DNA from: an uncultured Candidatus Saccharibacteria bacterium
GTDB lineage: Bacteria > Patescibacteriota > Minisyncoccia > Phycocordibacterales > CALRHW01
Direction: 5' to 3'
Assembly: GCA_964407105.1 (NCBI GenBank)
Contig: CAYOUG010000001.1
Location: 8,059-72,058 of the forward strand
DNA length: 64,000 nt
Shown: piece by piece, positions 4,045-59,168 of the stretch
How the letters are laid out: each line of letters opens with the position of its first letter
How positions within the stretch are numbered: position 1 is the first letter of the stretch
The notes under the pieces: generated by a model
The model's database searches: none
What the model was told of the DNA's origin: nothing
Seen by the model: the letters and a program-made list of their open reading frames with translations, nothing else
Translations under genes and position numbers: made by a program

Positions 4045-6264
4045 TTGAGTCACATGAAATTACTTATTGTCGAGTCGCCAGCAAAAGCAAAAACTATTTC
4101 AAAATATTTGGATGGTAAATTTACTGTGAAAGCATCAGTAGGTCATATTCGTGATTTACCAAAAAATAATAAAAAAGCAATCGACATCGAAGGTGGTTTT
4201 ATTCCTCACTATGAAATTTCAAAAGGTAAAGAGAATGTTGTGTCAGAAATAAAAGCGCTCGTAAAAAAAGCAGATGAAATTTATCTTGCTACCGACCCTG
4301 ATCGAGAAGGTGAGGCTATAGCTTGGCATATTGCGCAAGCCACGGGGATTAAAAATCCACAACGTGTCGTTTTTCACGAAATCACCAAAGATGCAGTAAC
4401 AGAAGCAATTCAACATCCGCGCGATATAGACGACAATTTAAAACAAGCTCAAGAAGCACGACGTGTGCTCGATCGTCTTGTGGGTTACGATCTTTCCGGC
4501 ATCATCTGGAAAAAAGTACGCTACGGTCTTTCTGCTGGACGCGTACAGTCGCCAGCTCTTCGTATTCTAATGGAAAGAGAACGAGAAATCCGCGCGTTCA
4601 TTTCTAATAAATTTTGGACAATCACCGCAGATCTTGAAAACACTGCAAAAAATAAACTCACATACACATGCGCGGACGAGCCAACAGATTTTTCTGTTGT
4701 AGAAAAAATTCTCTCTGCGGGAAAAGCTGGTGAATGGAAAATTACAGATATTAAAGAAACAGAAGTAAAACGTTCACCACGTGCACCGTTTACCACGTCC
4801 ACACTTCAACAAGCCGCAAGTTCACGACTTGGTTTTGCTCCATCAAAAACGATGGGGATTGCGCAAAAACTTTATGAAGCTGGACATATTTCATACATGC
4901 GCACAGACAGTACAACCCTTAGCTCACTTGCTATCGAACAAATTTCTGGGGTTATAGAAAAAAAGTTTGGAAAAAATTATCTCTCAGTGCGTGCATATAA
5001 AACAAAAAGTAAAAATGCACAGGAAGCACACGAAGCCGTACGACCAACACATTTTGGTAGTGAAAATGCTGGAACAACCGATGAACAAAAAAAACTTTAT
5101 CGACTTATTTGGCGTCGAGCAGTGGCTTCTCAAATGTCTGATGCAAATACGTTGCGTACACGCGTGACCACAAACATTGGTATAGCAGATGGTGTTGCGG
5201 GCGCTAAAACAGAGGCAATCCCCGATTTTCACGTCAATGGTTCTCGTATTCTTTTTGATGGGTGGTATGCCGCTGATCCCGCCGCTCGACAAGAAGATGT
5301 AGAACTCCCAAAAATGAGTATCGGTGAAGCATTAAAACTTATTGAAATAAAAACGGAAGAAAAAGAAACTCAACCACCAACACGTTATTCTGAAGCGGGT
5401 CTTGTAAAAGAGTTAGAAAAGCGCGGTATCGGTCGCCCATCTACTTACGCAAATATCATTAAAACAATTGTCGATCGTGGATACGTCCTCAAACAAAACA
5501 AAGCACTCGTACCCACAGACATTGGCGATGTTGTGAGCTCGTTTCTCGAAGACAATTTTATGAAATATATCAGTGATTCATTTACTGCTGAAATGGAAGA
5601 TAAGCTCGATGATATTGCAGAAGGAAAAGCTGAATATGAGAAAATTTTAAGCGCCTATTACAAACCATTAGCAAAAGAAGTTAAAGAAAAAGAAAAGCTC
5701 GCAAAAGCCACAGACCTCGGAAAAGCTCCAGCAGAATTTAAATGTCCTGTATGCAAAAGCGACATGATTATCAAACTCAGTAAGAGTGGAAGGTTTATGA
5801 GTTGTGAAAAATTTCCTGAATGTACTGGTGCTCGCACAATAGAAGGAAAAGAACTTGAGGGTCCAAAAGAAACAGGCGAAATGTGTCCTGAATGTAGTAC
5901 AGGTAAACTCATAGAACGCGACGGAAAGTTTGGACGTTTTATCGCATGCAACAATTATCCAAAATGTAAGTTTATTAAAAAAGACGCCGAGCTTGAAAAA
6001 CAAAATTCTACTGGTGTAACATGTCCTATCTGTAAAGATGGAATGATGACTGAACGCAGAGGACGTTTTGGACTTTTTTATAGTTGTAGCAATTATCCAA
6101 AATGTAAGCACGCCATAAAAGCAAAACCGACAGGAAATATTTGTGGCTACATGCGCGAAAACGGCCCGTGTCCTGCGCTAATGATGGAAGGTACGAAAAC
6201 AATTCCCGAGCGATGTTCAGATAAACTGTGTCCAAATCATAATCCGCATAAGTTGGGGAAATAA
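4045..6264 (+). CDS. topA: DNA topoisomerase I with C-terminal zinc-ribbon repeats
   Basis: 739 aa; TOPRIM N-terminus (MKLLIVESPAKAKTISKYL...GHIRDLP) and three C4 zinc-finger repeats (CPVC...C..C, CPEC, CPIC). Confidence 0.95.
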   Translation: MSHMKLLIVESPAKAKTISKYLDGKFTVKASVGHIRDLPKNNKKAIDIEGGFIPHYEISKGKENVVSEIKALVKKADEIYLATDPDREGEAIAWHIAQATGIKNPQRVVFHEITKDAVTEAIQHPRDIDDNLKQAQEARRVLDRLVGYDLSGIIWKKVRYGLSAGRVQSPALRILMEREREIRAFISNKFWTITADLENTAKNKLTYTCADEPTDFSVVEKILSAGKAGEWKITDIKETEVKRSPRAPFTTSTLQQAASSRLGFAPSKTMGIAQKLYEAGHISYMRTDSTTLSSLAIEQISGVIEKKFGKNYLSVRAYKTKSKNAQEAHEAVRPTHFGSENAGTTDEQKKLYRLIWRRAVASQMSDANTLRTRVTTNIGIADGVAGAKTEAIPDFHVNGSRILFDGWYAADPAARQEDVELPKMSIGEALKLIEIKTEEKETQPPTRYSEAGLVKELEKRGIGRPSTYANIIKTIVDRGYVLKQNKALVPTDIGDVVSSFLEDNFMKYISDSFTAEMEDKLDDIAEGKAEYEKILSAYYKPLAKEVKEKEKLAKATDLGKAPAEFKCPVCKSDMIIKLSKSGRFMSCEKFPECTGARTIEGKELEGPKETGEMCPECSTGKLIERDGKFGRFIACNNYPKCKFIKKDAELEKQNSTGVTCPICKDGMMTERRGRFGLFYSCSNYPKCKHAIKAKPTGNICGYMRENGPCPALMMEGTKTIPERCSDKLCPNHNPHKLGK

Positions 6265-6309
6265 AAGCACAGAACATATCCGTCTGTTCTTTTATTTCTC
6301 AATTCATTA

Positions 6310-6417
6310 AAACAATAACACTGTGTCTCGAAAACCACGCATAAAAGCCTGCTGGCTTTTTGCTACGCTCGGCCCGTCGGCCTGCGCGATGCTTTTCTCG
6401 ACACAGTGTTATTGTTT
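6310..6417. repeat. nested-hairpin intergenic repeat element, family 2, copy A
   Basis: 26-bp inverted arms (aaaacaataacactgtgtctcgaaaa / ttttctcgacacagtgttattgtttt) flank a GC-rich core ...gcctgctggctttttgctacgctcggcccgtcggcctgcgcgatgc. The core is near-identical to copy B at 11549-11652. Lies between the convergent topA and parB. Confidence 0.7.
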
Positions 6418-6424
6418 TACAAAT

Positions 6425-7480
6425 CTACACACTAAAATTTTTGATTGAATACAGCTCCTCCTCACTCTCCTGCTTTTCTGTTTTTGAGCGATCGTCAGCA
6501 AGATCTGATGTGAGAATTGGTTCTGGCGTTGAGGTTTCTTGCGATACTACATTTTGCCCCATTACCTCATCTGCATTTATAGATAAAGGTGTGGATGTAT
6601 TTTTCCCAAGTGTCTCAATATGTTTATCAAGCATCGCTGTAGCACCGCGAGATTTTTGCGATTCAAGCATATCTAAAATCGTGCGTAAGTCATCGTTTGA
6701 AAAGAAATCAATAGAAAGCTTTCCCCCATTTTCTTTTCGTTCAATAGACACGCGGGTGCCAAGCGTTTCAGAAAGTTTTTCTTCAAGTTCCACAAGCTCC
6801 GGGTCATGCATGAGCTCTTTCTTACGCACTTTATCAAAAGCAATTTTTCGAGAAATTGCTTCAGCTTCGCGTACTGTAAGTTTTTTGTAAACAATTTCTT
6901 TAAAAAGAGTATTTTGTTCTTCTGGTCTATCAACAAGCATCATGAGCGGACGCGTATGACCTTCAGAAATTTTTCCTGCACCGAGTGCATCAAGAATTTC
7001 CGATGGCAAAGAAAGAATACGGAGCGTGTTACTTACATACTCACGACTTTTACCAACCTTCGCAGCAATTTCGTTGTGCTTAAATTTAAATTCAATAGCA
7101 AGTCGCTCAAACGCTCGCGCACGATCAACAGGATTCAAGTCTTCGCGTTGAATATTTTCTATAATCGCGAGCTCAAGCTTCATAAGGTCGCTGTCATCAC
7201 CAGTTTTAATTAGCACCGGCACCTGTGTAAGACCAGCAAGCTTTGATGCACGCAAACGACGTTCACCGGCAATAATTTCATATTCCACCGCAAGTCCACC
7301 GTCTTCTTTTGGAACCTCTTTACGAGTAACGACAAGCGCCTGAAGTACACCGTATTGGCGAATAGAATCAGCGAGACTTTGGAGTTGCGCCTGATCAAAT
7401 TCGCGCCGTGGTTGAAACGGATTTGGTTTTATTTTATCTACATCCACCCAGAAAACTGAATCGTTGTAATACTGTGACAT
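6425..7480 (-). CDS. parB: chromosome partitioning protein ParB/Spo0J
   Basis: 351 aa; ParB box (VLQALVV...EIIAGERRLRASKLAGL) and HTH. No adjacent parA. Confidence 0.88.
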   Translation of the reverse strand: MSQYYNDSVFWVDVDKIKPNPFQPRREFDQAQLQSLADSIRQYGVLQALVVTRKEVPKEDGGLAVEYEIIAGERRLRASKLAGLTQVPVLIKTGDDSDLMKLELAIIENIQREDLNPVDRARAFERLAIEFKFKHNEIAAKVGKSREYVSNTLRILSLPSEILDALGAGKISEGHTRPLMMLVDRPEEQNTLFKEIVYKKLTVREAEAISRKIAFDKVRKKELMHDPELVELEEKLSETLGTRVSIERKENGGKLSIDFFSNDDLRTILDMLESQKSRGATAMLDKHIETLGKNTSTPLSINADEVMGQNVVSQETSTPEPILTSDLADDRSKTEKQESEEELYSIKNFSV

Positions 7481-7534: not shown

Positions 7535-7616
7535 GCCGTGGTGGCGGAATTGGTAGACGCACACGACTCAAAATCGTGCGGAGCAATCCATGAGAGTTCG
7601 ATTCTCTCCCGCGGCA
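7535..7616 (+). tRNA. tRNA-Leu (anticodon CAA)
   Basis: Cloverleaf: acceptor GCCGTGG/CCGCGGC, anticodon stem cacga/tcgtg with loop CTCAAAA, long variable arm, T-loop TTCGATT. Confidence 0.85.
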
Positions 7617-7663
7617 CAGTTTTTAATCTTGGTTTTTAGTTTTTTGAAAAACACCCACAAACC

Positions 7664-7692
7664 TATTGACATTTACATATTTATGTAATACA
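7664..7692 (+). promoter_or_regulatory. sigma70-like promoter (TTGACA-17-TACAAT) for the repeat-protein gene
   Basis: ttgacatttacatatttatgtaatacaat read directly from the sequence. Confidence 0.4.
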
Positions 7693-7710
7693 ATACTTTT
7701 ACATATGAAT

Positions 7711-8349
7711 GGTATGAAATTTTTCATGTTAATAATCTTGATAGCCATCGTGGCAATTCCACGTATTTCCCTCTCGGAATTTCCGGCTAATTCGCCATAT
7801 CCGGGTGAATTTTATGCTCTGTGTCGTGATGGAATTGATAACGATGGCGACGGAATGATTGATGACGGTCTTACTGTGCCCGGCGTACCCGCCGACCCAG
7901 ATTGTCCTAAATGTTACGATGGTATAGACAATGAGCCAGATGGATTTATAGACTTCGAAGATTCAGATTGTCCACAAAGTGGAGAGGTTCTTGGTGCTAA
8001 TAATTCAAACAATGGAAATAATTTAAATGGCAACAGCAATTTAGATGGTACAAGTAACTTGGACGGAAATAGCAACCTTGATGGTAATAGTAATTTAGAT
8101 GGAAATAGTAATCTAAAAGGAAATAGCAACTTAAAGGGCAACAACAATCTTAATGGTTCAAGTAATTTAAATGGGAATAGTAATCTTTCTAGTAACAACA
8201 ATTTAAACGGCACAAGTAATCTTGGTGGCAATAGCAACTTAAATGGAAACAGTAATCTAAACGGAAATAGCAACCTTGATGGTAACAGTAATTTAGATGG
8301 AAATAGTTTTGGTGATGACTGTCATTGTCATTGTGGTTGTGACTGGTAA
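7711..8349 (+). CDS. secreted acidic protein: Cys/DxDxDG calcium-binding-like motifs, 17 tandem G-N-S-N-L-D/N/K hexapeptides, C-terminal CHCHCGC cluster
   Basis: Start at MKFFMLIILIAIVAIP (signal/TM). CRDGIDNDGDGMIDDG and CYDGIDNEPDGFIDFEDSDC motifs. The 18-bp DNA repeat at 8005-8310 encodes GNSNLD-type units. C-terminus is DDCHCHCGCDW. Confidence 0.6.
   Translation, partial: GMKFFMLIILIAIVAIPRISLSEFPANSPYPGEFYALCRDGIDNDGDGMIDDGLTVPGVPADPDCPKCYDGIDNEPDGFIDFEDSDCPQSGEVLGANNSNNGNNLNGNSNLDGTSNLDGNSNLDGNSNLDGNSNLKGNSNLKGNNNLNGSSNLNGNSNLSSNNNLNGTSNLGGNSNLNGNSNLNGNSNLDGNSNLDGNSFGDDCHCHCGCDW
8005..8310 (+). repeat. 18-bp tandem repeat (~17 units) encoding the hexapeptide GNSNL(D/N/K)
   Basis: Repeating ggNaaYagYaaYYTNgaY units are visible. 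The minus-strand ORF 7914..8273 is the mirror-image artefact of this repeat. Confidence 0.85.
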
Positions 8350-8358
8350 TGTGAGCTT

Positions 8359-9270
8359 ATGAATGCTCAAAAAAAACTTATTGTAATACTTGGACCAACA
8401 GCTTCTGGAAAAAGTTCACTTGCTGTTGAGATAGCTCGTGATCTAAAAAAAGACGAAATTAATGCAGAAATTATTTCTGCGGACTCACGACAGATATATA
8501 CAGGCCTTGATATTGGCACAGGAAAAATATCACACAAGGAGATGATGGGAATACCCCACCATCTCCTTGATGTTTGTAGTCCCAAAAAATGCAGATTTAC
8601 TGTGGCAGATTTTCAGCGCCGCGCGCATGCGGCTATCGCCGCAATGCATGCGCGCGGCGCAATCCCCATTCTCTGTGGCGGTACCGGCTTTTATATCCAA
8701 TCAATAGTAGACAACATTACTCTACCCGAAGTTCCACCCAACAAAAAACTTCGCGTAAAACTTGAGAAACAAAGCACTGAGAAACTTTTTGAAACTCTCA
8801 AAAAACTCGATTTGAAACGTGCTCGGGGAATTGATGCGTTCAACAGACCACGCCTCATTCGTGCAATTGAAATCGCAACAGCTCTTGGAAAAGTACCCGC
8901 TGTAAAATCGCGGCCACTGTATGATGTTTTGCAAATTGGAATTATGACAGATGAGAAAAAATTGCGAGCACGCATTCACGAACGCCTTTTTGCACGCATG
9001 AAAAAAGGCATGCTGACCGAAGCAAAAAAACTTCACGCCCGCGGACTTTCATACACACGCATGAATGAGCTTGGTTTGGAATACAAATACCTTGCCTTGT
9101 TTTTACAGAAAAAAATCTCACGCGCAGAAATGCTTAAAACACTTGAACAAGAAATCTGGCACTACGCAAAACGCCAAATGACGTGGTTTAAAAAGGATAC
9201 ACGCATTGCGTGGTTTCCTCTTTCAAAGAAGGTTACGATTAAAAAAGTGGTGCGAAATTTTTTGAAATAA
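8359..9270 (+). CDS. miaA: tRNA dimethylallyltransferase
   Basis: 303 aa; P-loop GPTASGKS followed by the IISADSRQIY motif. Confidence 0.9.
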   Translation: MNAQKKLIVILGPTASGKSSLAVEIARDLKKDEINAEIISADSRQIYTGLDIGTGKISHKEMMGIPHHLLDVCSPKKCRFTVADFQRRAHAAIAAMHARGAIPILCGGTGFYIQSIVDNITLPEVPPNKKLRVKLEKQSTEKLFETLKKLDLKRARGIDAFNRPRLIRAIEIATALGKVPAVKSRPLYDVLQIGIMTDEKKLRARIHERLFARMKKGMLTEAKKLHARGLSYTRMNELGLEYKYLALFLQKKISRAEMLKTLEQEIWHYAKRQMTWFKKDTRIAWFPLSKKVTIKKVVRNFLK

Positions 9271-9295: not shown

Positions 9296-9853
9296 TTATT
9301 TACGTCGAACAATAAGTATCGCTGAAAGTAGGATGTTTCCACATATCCAAGCTACAATCCAAGAAGAAGAAAGAAATGTGTAATACTCCACAGCAAACAG
9401 TGCCAAACAAAATCTTAAAGCATTGGTTACATAGAGCGAAAGTGTTTCTGAATATGGCTCATAATATGATTTGCGAACTGTTGGAATAAAAGCAAACATA
9501 TCAGCGAGAATAACTAAAATCATAGAGATCACAGGCTGGTCAACGATGAGCCAAAAAAATATTGCAACGAGAGATAAAACTGCCACTACCGTATCAGATC
9601 TTGTTATATCTTTCTTACCATTTTTAAAACTTAAAATAACGACCCCGATACACAAAAGTCCGGCAGATATTGTCACCAACACAGCGGGTCCAGCACCTCC
9701 CTTGATTTGTAGGGCAACAAGTAAGATCGTGAGTAGTCCCCACAATGACCAACTATAAATATGTGGGCGAGTTTTACCATTTAAAATATCACGATAGTAC
9801 GGGATATATGCCACAAAAGTTAGTACAGCAGCAGCAATGCCAATAATTTCTTT
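9296..9853 (-). CDS. integral membrane protein, PQ-loop/SemiSWEET-like repeats (ORF may extend to 9979)
   Basis: About 6-7 TM helices. LTFVAYIPYYRDILNGKTRPHIYSWSLWG resembles the PQ-loop motif (LPQ...K.T...S...W). Start chosen at MKEIIGIAAA; upstream in-frame M residues exist. Confidence 0.35.
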   Translation of the reverse strand, partial: KEIIGIAAAVLTFVAYIPYYRDILNGKTRPHIYSWSLWGLLTILLVALQIKGGAGPAVLVTISAGLLCIGVVILSFKNGKKDITRSDTVVAVLSLVAIFFWLIVDQPVISMILVILADMFAFIPTVRKSYYEPYSETLSLYVTNALRFCLALFAVEYYTFLSSSWIVAWICGNILLSAILIVRRK

Positions 9854-9975
9854 CATTCTTTTTTGCGGGCCCACTCCGACTCGAACGGAGAACTGCGCTT
9901 TTGGAGAGCGATGTTTTACCATTGAAACTATAGGCCCAATGTGGTTATGGTAGCAGAAAAAACTGGTTTTTAAAA

Positions 9976-10032
9976 GCAAAAAACGCTTCCGAACGAGTTA
10001 GCGAAGCGCTTTAGAGAGGAAGCGTTTTTTGC
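9976..10032. repeat. hairpin element family 1 copy (conserved core, co-varying arms); bidirectional terminator-like
   Basis: Arms gcaaaaaacgcttcc/ggaagcgttttttgc flank the core gaacgagttagcgaagcgctttagagag. T-runs lie on both sides. Lies downstream of rpmG. Confidence 0.7.
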
Positions 10033-11508: not shown

Positions 11509-11548
11509 AATACCACGAATTCTAAGCCAAAATTGACCTTAAGTAAAG

Positions 11549-11652
11549 CTGTAAAATAAGTGTTTGAAAAGCATCGCGCAGGCCGACGGGCCGAGCGTAG
11601 CAAAATCGCAGCAGCGATTTATGCGTGGTTTTCAAACACTTATTTTATAGCT
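11549..11652. repeat. nested-hairpin intergenic repeat element, family 2, copy B (inverted relative to A)
   Basis: About 27-bp arms (taaagctgtaaaataagtgtttgaaaa / ttttcaaacacttattttatagcttta). Core is the reverse complement of ccacgcataaatcgctgctgcgattttgctacgctcggcccgtcggcctgcgcgatgc. Lies downstream of gyrB. Confidence 0.7.
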
Positions 11653-11655
11653 TTA

Positions 11656-13737
11656 CTAGATATCAATCGTCGCTTTCTTTGCATTCGACTGAATAAAAGA
11701 TTTTCGAGACGGCACATCAGTACCCATGAGAATATCAAAAACTTTGTCAGCGGCCACACCATCTTCAACGGCTACTTGTTTTAAAATACGATTGCCCGGA
11801 TCCATAGTGGTCTCCCAAAGTTCTTCTGAGTTCATTTCTCCAAGACCTTTGTAACGCTGAATAGAAATTTTATTTTTTCGAGGCACTTTTCCTTTTGTTT
11901 CAGAAGTAGTATTTTCGTTACCCGCTTCTCCACCACCCTCTTCTTCAAAATCTCCACTGTCACCTTGAGAATCTTCCATTATTTCTTCTGCGGAAACATC
12001 TTTTCCAATTTTTTCGATCTTTTCAGCATCAGTGTAGGCATACATTACCTCCTTCCCTTTTTTAATTTTATAGAGTGGTGGCTGAGCAATATATACAAAT
12101 CCCCCGTCAATAAGCGGTCGGAAAAAACGATATAAAAGTGTCAAAATAAGTGTACGAATATGCGCACCGTCCACGTCGGCATCGGTTGCAAGAATAATTT
12201 TGTGATAGCGGAGCTTGGTAATATCAAAAGTGTCGCCAATAGCCGTACCGAGCGCGACCACCAAATTTTTAATTTGCTCTGATTCAAGCATACGATCAAG
12301 ACGCGCACGCTCAATATTTAAAATTTTTCCTCGAAGTGGTAGCACCGCTTGTGTGCGTCTATCGCGACCAGATTTTGCTGTACCGCCCGCAGAATCTCCC
12401 TCTACAATAAAAAGCTCCGACTCACTTGCGTCTTTCGTCTGACAATCTGCAAGTTTTCCGGGAAGTGTCATGCCTTCAAGTGCGCCCTTTCGAAGCACAC
12501 TGTCTTTTGCTGCTTTTGCAGCCTTGCGAGCTTTGAGCGCAAGCACAACCTTATTGATCATTGCACGTGCATCTTCAGGATTTTCTTCTAGAAAATAATT
12601 GAATGATTCACTAAAAATAGTTTCCACCGCGCCACGAGCTTCTACTGTACCGAGTTTTGCTTTTGTTTGACCTTCAAATTGAATTTCTCGAAGTTTGATA
12701 GACACCACAGCGGTCAGACCTTCAAGAGCATCTTCTCCAGTAAAATTATCCTCGTTTTCCTTAACCATATTATTTTTGCGTGCATAGGCATTAAGTGTAC
12801 GAGTGAGAGCGGTTTTAAAACCAGTAATATGTGTTCCACCTTCTGAGTTATAAATATTGTTTGCGAAAGCCAAAATTCTGCTTGAAATATCATCTACATA
12901 CTGCAAAGAAACTTCCACCGACTCATATTCATTTGTTGGCTTTTCAACATAAAAAATATTTTTGTGAATTGGCTTAAGGGTTTGATTGTAAAACTTTACC
13001 ATAGAAAGAATACCTCCTTCAAAATAAAAAGTTTGTGACGGTGCATCTACCCCAAGCTCACTGAAATAAAATATTTCTCCAGGAATTTCTTTTGTATAAT
13101 TTCTTGCGTCAATAACAGAAATACGAAGACCTTTTACAAGATATGCTTGCTGACGCATGTGTCCCACAATACGATTGAAATCGAAAGTTTGTTTACCAAA
13201 AATTTCTTCATCTGGTTCAAAGGAAATTATTGTTCCGCTGTGTTTTGTGGCACTCACACGCTTTACCACTGCTTTTCTTTTTCCTCGACTATACTCCTGA
13301 ACATAATAACCACCGTCTTTATGAATCTCTGCTTTTACATAAACAGAAAGTGCGTTTACTACAGAAGCACCCACACCATGAAGACCTCCCGACACCTTGT
13401 ATCCTTCACCACCAAATTTTCCTCCAGCGTGAAGTGTTGTCATAATTGTTTCAAGTGCAGAAACTTTTGTTTGTTTATGAATATCAACAGGAATACCTCG
13501 GCCGTTGTCTGTTACACGTACGCGATTATTTGGCAAAAGAACAATTTCAATATTATCGGCAAAGTCACCCATCGCTTCGTCGCGGGAGTTATCAAAAATT
13601 TCAGTAACGAGGTGATGGAAACCATCTGGACCGGTAGTACCAATGTACATACCCGGACGTTTTCGTACTGGTTCCAAACCCTCGAGCACCGAGATTGCTT
13701 CTGCGGTATATCCTCCTTTTTTTTCTTCTTTTGCCAT
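11656..13737 (-). CDS. gyrB: DNA gyrase subunit B
   Basis: 693 aa; GHKL ATPase, TOPRIM and C-terminal domains; EGDSAGG motif. Confidence 0.95.
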   Translation of the reverse strand: MAKEEKKGGYTAEAISVLEGLEPVRKRPGMYIGTTGPDGFHHLVTEIFDNSRDEAMGDFADNIEIVLLPNNRVRVTDNGRGIPVDIHKQTKVSALETIMTTLHAGGKFGGEGYKVSGGLHGVGASVVNALSVYVKAEIHKDGGYYVQEYSRGKRKAVVKRVSATKHSGTIISFEPDEEIFGKQTFDFNRIVGHMRQQAYLVKGLRISVIDARNYTKEIPGEIFYFSELGVDAPSQTFYFEGGILSMVKFYNQTLKPIHKNIFYVEKPTNEYESVEVSLQYVDDISSRILAFANNIYNSEGGTHITGFKTALTRTLNAYARKNNMVKENEDNFTGEDALEGLTAVVSIKLREIQFEGQTKAKLGTVEARGAVETIFSESFNYFLEENPEDARAMINKVVLALKARKAAKAAKDSVLRKGALEGMTLPGKLADCQTKDASESELFIVEGDSAGGTAKSGRDRRTQAVLPLRGKILNIERARLDRMLESEQIKNLVVALGTAIGDTFDITKLRYHKIILATDADVDGAHIRTLILTLLYRFFRPLIDGGFVYIAQPPLYKIKKGKEVMYAYTDAEKIEKIGKDVSAEEIMEDSQGDSGDFEEEGGGEAGNENTTSETKGKVPRKNKISIQRYKGLGEMNSEELWETTMDPGNRILKQVAVEDGVAADKVFDILMGTDVPSRKSFIQSNAKKATIDI

Positions 13738-59049: not shown

Positions 59050-59168
59050 AAAAAAGCAGAGAAATGTGTGTTTTCTCAGCACGCGTCAAAGCCTGCTGGC
59101 TTTGCTGCTCCGCTCGGCGCCGTCGCGCCTGCGCGAGTCTTCGTAAACACACATTTCTCTGCTTTTTT
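59050..59168. repeat. nested-hairpin intergenic repeat element, family 2, copy C
   Basis: Arms aaaaaagcagagaaatgtgtgttt/aaacacacatttctctgctttttt flank the core ...aagcctgctggctttgctgctccgctcggcgccgtcgcgcctgcgcgag. Lies downstream of prfB. Confidence 0.7.

Follow-up and report, generated by a model that had tools for sequence, protein, structure and literature searches.

A 64,000-nucleotide stretch of contig CAYOUG010000001.1 from an uncultured Candidatus Saccharibacteria bacterium (hereafter the window) carries an unannotated gene of 214 codons, located between a tRNA-Leu(CAA) gene and miaA. The gene is real, and its product belongs to an undescribed family of small proteins built of known parts, a pair of acidic disulfide loops of the NF033662/teneurin type followed by a pentapeptide-like repeat of six residues and predicted solenoid fold. 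Taken as a whole, we read the product as an exported, calcium-stabilised and solenoid-tailed structural or adhesive protein that is not phase-variable, an interpretation whose chances of being right or wrong we judge to be evenly balanced. An earlier interpretation, which had been made from the DNA letters alone and is referred to here as the sequence-only reading, had described the same gene as a contingency locus for a surface fibre or adhesin, and several of its observations are taken up below.

The conserved mature N-terminus EFPANSPYPGEFYAL is followed by two tandem acidic loops, C40-RDGIDNDGDGMIDDGLTVPGVPADPD-C67-PK and C70-YDGIDNEPDGFIDFEDSD-C89-PQSGEVLGANNSNN. The paired C-x-DGIDNDGDG motifs that had been reported for this region are both present, but only the first has this form (C40-R-DGIDNDGDG), whereas the second is C70-Y-DGIDNEPDG and thus reads NEPDG at the corresponding positions. 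Across the family, the columns C40, D42, D45, N46, D47, G48, D49, G50, D53, D64, D66 and C67 are invariant in the first loop, as are P68, K69, C70, D72, D75, N76, D79, I82, D83, D86, D88, C89 and P90 in the segment of the second. An insertion of eight residues in loop 1, located between the fifth and the sixth ligand position, is specific to the subclade. The head (residues 25-95) is 92% and 80% identical to those of the two nearest orthologues, while the neighbouring MiaA is less conserved, at 80% and 72%.

The sole curated model that recognises the head is NF033662, the ‘acidic double-disulfide repeat’, which is widespread in Myxococcota, Peribacteria, DPANN archaea and the Candidate Phyla Radiation and overlaps the ‘putative metal-binding motif’ of Pfam PF11617 (Cu-binding_MopE). 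The core that NF033662 and PF11617 have in common with the head is C-x-D-G-x-D-N-D-G-D-G-x-x-D-x-x-D-x-D-C, and the tandem Cys-bracketed acidic core that characterises NF033662 (D-G-x-D-N-D-x-D-G...D-x-D-C) occurs in both C40...C67 and C70...C89. The window protein reached 21.9 bits in two stretches, the better one at residues 69-90, and remained under the cutoff of 41; its relatives scored 36.9 (P0002), 41.0 (P0001), 43.9 (P0005) and 45.6 bits (P0003), and multi-repeat proteins 85-145 bits. The wider family therefore qualifies for NF033662, and the window protein is a divergent member. PF11617 (cutoff 27 bits) did not match the window protein at E<=10, and among the relatives the L105 orthologue reached 17.2 and P0003 14 bits. 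A profile search with the head retrieved 3335 representative proteins, mostly giant ones that contain 5-36 copies and come from Myxococcota, Peribacteria, DPANN archaea and further groups. In contrast to such typical NF033662 proteins, the window protein is small and has exactly two copies of the loop, both N-terminal; some 15 small proteins bear the head module once and N-terminally and represent the sub-family treated here. In a metagenome-assembled genome of a Candidatus Parcubacteria bacterium (L073, positions 4422-7007), an 862-residue protein was found in which a prepilin N-terminal methylation signal occurs together with six NF033662 repeats; it also bears a myxo_disulf_rpt/DUF4215 repeat and the PF11617 motif, and calcium-loop repeats thus occur on a pilin-like protein.

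When the head profile was compared with solved structures, the best match was the C-rich domain of teneurin-4 (7PLP; 49 residues, E = 1.1e-4). This domain contains three octahedral Ca2+ sites, two of them with thrombospondin type-3 coordination, depends on calcium for its stability and has a C838-C857 disulfide (PMC9058538). An alignment of the same core motif between teneurins, proteins of algae and Pfam PF11617 had been published earlier (PMC3278476). The teneurin residues C838, D840, D843, N844, D845, D847, D851, D854, D856 and C857 correspond to conserved Cys, Asp and Asn columns of the family, by which seven of the eight acidic Ca ligands, N844 and the disulfide (equivalent to C40-C67 and C70-C89 in the window protein) are aligned with the head. 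The second loop keeps the exact teneurin spacing with D845 replaced by E77, and teneurin E835 is not conserved in the head family. There are further differences, as the conotoxin-like C-terminal part of the teneurin domain is absent from the window protein and teneurins are eukaryotic and stand in a very different context. The homology to teneurin-4 supports the proposal of the sequence-only reading that the acidic, Cys-framed motifs are of the thrombospondin type-3 or calcium-binding kind. Because the Asp and Asn ligands are spaced as in teneurin C-rich and thrombospondin type-3 sites, each of the two loops, closed by one disulfide each, would be expected to hold Ca2+ and to be rigid only in the Ca2+-bound state. 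Dockerins and EF-hand pairs likewise have a module of about 65 residues in which two D-x-D-x-D-G loops follow each other at a distance of some 30 residues. However, in the AlphaFold models the head has no flanking helices, and its loops are disulfide-closed instead. The EF-hand pair of calcineurin B was matched weakly by the head (E = 0.0012), whereas the EF-hand families of Pfam (PF13499 and related) gave no match to the window protein and only 10-18 bits for relatives, compared to cutoffs of 25-30.

Behind a short linker, the protein continues in a regular hexapeptide array with a lag-6 self-identity of 0.64 (z = 12.7 versus shuffles). The 17 tandem hexapeptides that had been placed at 8005-8310 are thus confirmed with regard to their period but not to number and span, as the array comprises 16 units with Leu and one degenerate unit (Table 1). 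At the DNA level, the 18-bp repeats are far from perfect, contrary to what had been stated: mean pairwise identity of the 18-nucleotide units is 67%, adjacent units are 44-83% identical, only a single pair is identical, and the longest exact repeat in the array measures 25 nucleotides with its copies 198 nucleotides apart. Unit identity at the DNA level is similarly 61-69% in all five orthologues examined. The sharing of synonymous codons between units equals that of random draws from the genome codon usage at every lag, and adjacent units in the window share even fewer codons than expected (19 of 68 versus 29, p = 0.009). In the L109 orthologue (1505-2257), the array begins at residue 100 and has 17 units, of which 12 encode the identical peptide NSDLRP; here the DNA of the units is 66% identical, and the NSDLRP units use AGT, AGC and TCT for Ser, five codons for Leu, four for Arg and three for Pro. 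The peptide period is hence under purifying selection while the DNA is de-repeated, which is the opposite of a contingency locus.

The number of units is 16, in the same register, in each of the three closest orthologues, which belong to different species-level lineages with MiaA proteins 72-80% identical. Within these arrays, positions drift between Gly and Pro and between Asn and Asp, with the sum of Asn, Asp and Glu steady at about 70-77. More distant orthologues have 14 (L108), 17 (L109) and 12 units (P0112), and unit number changes, but only over long evolutionary distances. One independent Logan contig was identical to the window across the array. The count of repeat units that had been proposed as a check is accordingly covered by this one contig and by the three orthologues: the repeat number is invariant among close relatives, whereas a match to a characterised family was not obtained.

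A different kind of variation was observed in sister branches. In the strain pairs L100/L101 and L097/L102, DNA identity amounts to about 97-100% in the upstream region and in the first 420 nucleotides of the gene, and likewise in the downstream miaA region (over more than 1.4 kb in L097/L102) and in the last 170 nucleotides of the gene (L100/L101). However, the 450-550 nucleotides coding for the tail are about 40-65% identical in both pairs and contain insertions and deletions. In these branches the tail is a localised, cassette-like hypervariable segment, and the pattern would fit allelic replacement or strong diversifying selection on the exposed part of the protein. A target of a diversity-generating retroelement was considered and dropped, as the tail differences consist of insertions, deletions and complete divergence and not of A-specific substitutions.

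The contingency locus of the sequence-only reading, in which the copy number of the 18-bp repeat would shift by slipped-strand mispairing and thereby vary a surface adhesin, has to be weighed against these data. The coding repeat does have an 18-nucleotide periodicity, more distant orthologues do differ in having 12, 14 or 17 units, and the sister-branch tails do differ between near-identical strains, so that the expected variability exists in part, though it arises by another mechanism and in other branches. Slippage itself is contradicted by units that are only 61-69% identical without long exact repeats close to each other, by randomised synonymous codons of which adjacent units share fewer than by chance, and by the constant number of 16 units in all three closest orthologues together with the identical independent assembly. 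In addition, the 18-nucleotide unit preserves the reading frame, and therefore changes in copy number could not switch expression on and off. We consider a contingency locus highly improbable and already largely refuted; a regular peptide repeat is by itself no evidence for a slippage-prone locus, and the array rather points to selection that keeps the peptide periodic while erasing the repetitiveness of the DNA.

Within the units of the tail, small or apolar positions (Gly/Pro, Ser, Leu) alternate with polar ones (Asn/Asp, Asn/Asp, Asp/Asn/Lys), as in strands with a buried face. An AlphaFold2 model of the full-length protein from a family alignment of seven sequences had a predicted local distance difference test score (pLDDT) of 56.7 overall and of 62-70 in the tail, and a model of the tail only, from the single sequence, had a pLDDT of 72.3, with 74-82 over residues 11-100. 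Both models show one short strand per unit and a pattern of strand lengths that repeats every three units (18 residues). The tail is therefore probably a short beta-solenoid rod with three or four units per coil and of either handedness, in which Leu and Ser of the 16 units would point inward and Asn and Asp outward. The top hits of both models in Foldseek, none of them significant, were all beta-solenoids, namely ice-binding proteins, the C-terminal domain of CAP, a pentapeptide-repeat protein and autotransporters.

Pfam assigned neither the intact protein nor the tail to a family, and a sequence search of the PDB with the tail yielded only chance matches to collagen (E > 1). Upon removal of the residue after Gly in each unit, however, the tail matched two Pfam models, Pentapeptide (PF00805) with 75.2 bits and an E-value of 2.8e-21 and Pentapeptide_4 with 40.4 bits, and deletion of any other single position resulted in much lower scores. 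Correspondingly, 12 of the 16 units fit [STAV][DN]L-x-G, and five of the six positions (S-N-L-D-G) agree with the consensus of the pentapeptide repeat proteins (PF00805; the right-handed quadrilateral beta-helix Rfr, Qnr/MfpA and cyanobacterial Rfr). These proteins have a period of five (A[DN]LXX), whereas the window tail has a period of six, and the intact array has no match. The pentapeptide repeat proteins characterised to date are known as cytoplasmic DNA mimics, in contrast to the window protein, which is predicted to be exported and is joined to a Ca-loop head. The most fitting description of the unit is thus a pentapeptide-repeat motif (S-N-L-x-G) extended by a single residue, which resembles the family without being a member of it. 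Bacterial transferase hexapeptides, which form a left-handed beta-helix (PF00132), share with the tail the period of six, the aliphatic residue at position i and the small residue at i+4; however, the window tail yielded no match at the family cutoff of 27 bits, only 7 of the 16 units fit [LIV][GAED]xx[STAV]x, and a catalytic context is missing. Among most members of the small-protein family, a period of six dominates the tail whatever its composition, including types such as GGTIPS, APGYTx and xANLNS, and the tail of the sister-family protein P0003 passes the Pfam Hexapep cutoff (30.2 bits versus 27). In PHROG, the window tail (7993-8346) has matches to three families without a known function (phrog_7964, phrog_5070 and phrog_31248; E about 1e-7), as have the tails of L107 and P0112, a similarity that may be compositional. 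A tblastn search of phage genomes with the tail gave no match, probably owing to low-complexity masking, and a scan of viral contigs found no relative.

Other views of the tail are conceivable. It might be a disordered, Asn/Asp-rich polyanionic spacer or calcium sponge that, for instance, buffers Ca2+, nucleates minerals at its surface or forms a hydrated brush, with the head as the only folded part. Such a role would agree with the composition (45 Asn in the window protein, 48-54 Asp plus Glu in orthologues and an isoelectric point of about 4), with the lack of significant fold matches and with the tail being the least conserved part of the protein and of quite different composition in other branches of the family. 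Yet Leu recurs strictly every six residues with Ser two positions before it, a pattern typical of a buried core which is kept in five orthologues while the other positions drift; AlphaFold predicts regular strands at a pLDDT of about 80 from the single sequence, and most tails of the family share the period of six irrespective of composition. A disordered tail is therefore unlikely in our view. A left-handed beta-helix with three units per coil of 18 residues, assembled into a trimeric fibre with the Cys/His end as its metal apex, would explain the period of six and the strand pattern of the models. HxH motifs form a metal-binding apex in phage spikes. Ser or Thr at position i+4 in 14 of the 16 units and, besides the Hexapep match of P0003, weak LbH_EIF2B hits of P0003 and P0006 point in the same direction. 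The window tail itself, however, gave no Hexapep match even at E<=10 and fits the hexapeptide consensus in less than half of its units, Foldseek returned no LbH transferases in spite of the many in the PDB and gave right-handed helices as its non-significant top hits, and the His residues at the end are not conserved in orthologues. Such a fibre is a quite unlikely arrangement. Two further proposals have next to no credibility. One of these is an ice-binding or antifreeze protein, for which the non-significant top hits of the full-length model to ice-binding beta-helices and a weak CfAFP signal in Pfam, obtained on artificially edited sequences only, could be quoted; all E-values were >= 1 and a flat Thr/Ala ice-binding face is missing. 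The other is the precursor of a ribosomally made peptide with the Cys-rich C-terminus as its modified core. The alternating Cys residues would suit such a precursor, but the neighbours are housekeeping genes without radical-SAM or other modification enzymes, a Sec signal would be atypical and L108 and L109 lack the Cys cluster; the candidate was dropped because of the Sec signal and the neighbours. Compared with these proposals, the solenoid rod remains the preferred view of the tail.

At its C-terminus, the window protein ends in ...FGDDCHCHCGCDW-stop. The CHCHCGC cluster noted earlier is present there, but its His residues are not conserved: common to the window protein (CHCHCGCDW), L107 (CGCYCECHCGCGW) and L105 (CDCNCGCW) is the pattern C-x-C-x-C-G-C-(x)-W-stop, in which conservation is limited to the alternating Cys and the terminal Trp. 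For the same reason an HxH iron site was dropped as a candidate. P0112 ends in PCGCYDSYVYFRF, and across the orthologues all C-termini are rich in cross-linkable residues, either Cys or Tyr, which may point to cross-links, covalent or through metals, that join the protein into an oligomer or a matrix. In the window protein, the four alternating Cys ahead of the final Trp would likely cross-link the protein by intermolecular disulfides or by a thiolate-metal cluster.

The N-terminus MNGMKFFMLIILIAIVAIPRISLS consists of an n-region containing Lys, a hydrophobic core of 13 residues and S-L-S ahead of the conserved E-F-P, and in the family alignments small-x-small and then an E-[FL]-P without variation likewise come after the hydrophobic core. 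This visible and conserved pattern is consistent with the secreted protein of the sequence-only reading. The product is probably exported by the Sec pathway and cleaved before E25, although the segment may instead serve as an uncleaved signal anchor. The mature protein would comprise about 190 residues and is very acidic (isoelectric point about 4).

Upstream of the gene, the TTGACA-17-TACAAT promoter was found as described before, with 11 of 12 matches, and equivalent -35 and -10 boxes are kept in L107, L105, L103, L096, L097, L101 and L102, where they end 6-11 nucleotides before the start codon (10 nucleotides from the end of the -10 box to the ATG in the window). Because the -10 hexamer lies so near to the start codon that a leader with a Shine-Dalgarno sequence would not fit, we expect a leaderless or near-leaderless mRNA, with its predicted start site placed accordingly. 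The same spacing in the orthologous loci suggests that this patescibacterial gene family is transcribed into leaderless mRNAs in general. The gene is separated from miaA by 9 nucleotides in the window, and in all orthologous loci the two genes overlap or are up to 20 nucleotides apart. As no plus-strand terminator was found between them and the gap is short, co-transcription of the gene with miaA is likely. We predict that the gene is probably expressed highly and constitutively.

The position of the gene in the genome is conserved. Within the window the gene order is serS, dprA, topA, parB, tRNA-Leu, the gene, miaA, a membrane protein gene, rpmG, alr and gyrB, and the order dprA-topA-(relA/spoT)-parB(-)-tRNA-Leu(CAA)-gene-miaA-...-rpmG is kept in L096, L097-99, L100, L102, L103, L105/106, L107, L108 and L109. 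The gene is thus a positional orthologue, defined by parB, tRNA-Leu and miaA, in at least nine loci of Patescibacteria, and the orthologues of L096, L097 and L100 are preceded by this tRNA gene in the same way. The closest lineages were reached with the window MiaA as query, whose named relatives belong to Parcubacteria, Paceibacterota and Taylorbacteria and thereby place the organism among ultra-small bacteria of the Paceibacteria/Parcubacteria type. The orthologues found in this way have 218 (L107), 210 (L105/L106), 204 as called (L108) and 250 residues (L109); the called start of L108 is probably truncated relative to L109. Other searches returned less. With a profile of the subclade alignment, P0112 was the sole protein to be retrieved over its full length, a scan of JGI metagenomes gave distant loop-containing proteins only and no close allele, a scan of GTDB genomes was swamped by the widespread loop motif, and an exact-sequence cluster look-up showed the window protein to be absent from the collection. 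In the literature, no description of the family, of the NF033662 repeat or of a six-residue variant of the pentapeptide repeat was found.

The protein would be an abundant extracellular or cell-surface element of structural or adhesive function, which appears to be the most likely role, and the surface fibre or adhesin of the sequence-only reading is still plausible. A number of findings weigh against this interpretation. The named homologues are a handful of small proteins from Patescibacteria, all of them annotated as ‘hypothetical protein’. The window protein remains under the cutoff of NF033662 and is matched by no Pfam family, and one of the Ca sites could be disturbed by the eight-residue insertion in loop 1. 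In the teneurin domain, six Cys form the pairs 1-3, 2-5 and 4-6, whereas the loops of the window protein have two Cys each, equivalent to the pair 1-3 only. With regard to the tail, the structural models are of moderate confidence only (pLDDT 56.7 for the full length, 72.3 for the tail), Foldseek searches of both models against PDB and BFVD returned nothing with E < 0.3, and the models give three units per coil where the pentapeptide analogy predicts four. The 12-17 units of the more distant orthologues indicate that the length is not strictly fixed. In L108 (1882-2496) and L109 (1505-2257), the alternating-Cys end is replaced by long Tyr/Gly-rich tails with GYDYYGYND repeats. Finally, neither a lipobox nor an LPXTG motif was seen that would anchor the protein to the surface.

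The features of the gene and its immediate neighbours are listed in Table 1. The open reading frame of the sequence-only reading, 7711-8349, is correct in its end, but position 7711 is a GGT codon; the start is the first ATG, at 7705, and not the second at 7714, because the two nearest orthologues open with MNGSKFF and MNGAKFF. The window was 100% identical over 2306 nucleotides to the Logan contig, which is from an independent assembly (SRR12487045). Throughout the 64-kb window no other open reading frame has the motifs of this gene, and an antisense frame at 7914-8273 was dropped as a by-product of the repeat.

Table 1. Coordinates of the gene, its predicted features and its flanking genes in the window.
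Feature	Position	Strand	Basis
tRNA-Leu(CAA), conserved upstream neighbour	7535..7617	+	ARAGORN and Rfam
Sigma-70-type promoter: -35 TTGACA 7666-7671, 17-nucleotide spacer, -10 TACAAT 7689-7694	7666..7694	+	11/12 matches
Coding sequence, 214 residues plus stop	7705..8349	+	Uninterrupted open reading frame; same gene called on independent Logan contig; orthologues at same genomic position
Signal-peptide-like segment, residues 1-24, predicted cleavage after I-S-L-S, before E25	7705..7776	+	Sequence and family alignments
Conserved mature N-terminus EFPANSPYPGEFYAL, residues 25-39	7777..7821	+	E25, P27, N29, P31, Y32, P33, Y37 invariant in alignment A1
Acidic disulfide loop 1, C40...C67-P68, with 8-residue insertion DGLTVPGV	7822..7908	+	Alignments; aligns to ligand positions of teneurin-4 C-rich domain
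Acidic disulfide loop 2, C70...C89-P90	7912..7974	+	Spacing identical to teneurin C-rich core
Linker QSGEVLGANNSNN with conserved G-x-V-L-G	7975..8013	+	G93, V95, L96, G97 invariant in A3
16 hexapeptide units, consensus N-S-N-L-[DNK]-G	8014..8301	+	Leu every 6 residues, residues 107-197
Degenerate 17th unit NSFGDD	8302..8319	+	Sequence
Alternating-Cys cluster CHCHCGCDW	8320..8346	+	Sequence; C-x-C-x-C-G-C-(x)-W kept in L107 and L105
miaA (tRNA dimethylallyltransferase), 9 nucleotides downstream of the gene	8359..9270	+	Pfam IPPT

Between miaA and rpmG, the minus strand of the window encodes a multi-pass membrane protein of 227 residues without a Pfam family (9296-9979), and unannotated open reading frames lie at the equivalent place in several of the orthologous loci. 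A GC-rich core of about 68 nucleotides (CACGCATAAAAGCCTGCTGGCTTTTTGCTACGCTCGGCCCGTCGGCCTGCGCGATGC...) was found at 6330-6397, with an inverted copy at 11566-11633 (91%) and a partial one at 59088-59136 (about 90%). The first two copies are each located in the loop of a long AT-rich hairpin (6308-6419 and 11524-11675) and are intergenic, between the facing genes topA and parB and between alr and gyrB, respectively. The element corresponds to no Rfam family and gives rise to spurious open reading frames, both opening with MLRSARRPARCFS.

Patescibacteria have tiny genomes, many of them are attached to other cells, and no function has been assigned to most of the proteins that they export. With its fixed position beside housekeeping genes, its near-consensus promoter, a head that is more conserved than MiaA and a very rapidly evolving tail, the protein is a candidate for a major component of the envelope or of attachment. 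As it represents the teneurin/thrombospondin-type calcium site in a minimal bacterial form with two loops, it would also lend itself to biophysical work. A more far-reaching proposal, which we regard as doubtful though possible, is that the slot between parB/tRNA-Leu and miaA of Paceibacteria-like genomes holds, throughout the lineage, a leaderless and highly expressed gene for a calcium-locked surface protein. The period-6 tail would be its variable outer face, in some branches swapped in cassette-like manner between strains that are about 99% identical in the flanks; in the lineage of the window, the tail would represent a new class of solenoid, a hexapeptide of the ‘pentapeptide repeat plus one’ kind, with codons actively scrambled against recombination and with a Cys cap for cross-linking or metal binding. 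If true, the protein encoded in this slot could be one determinant of the interaction with hosts or phages in ultra-small episymbionts.

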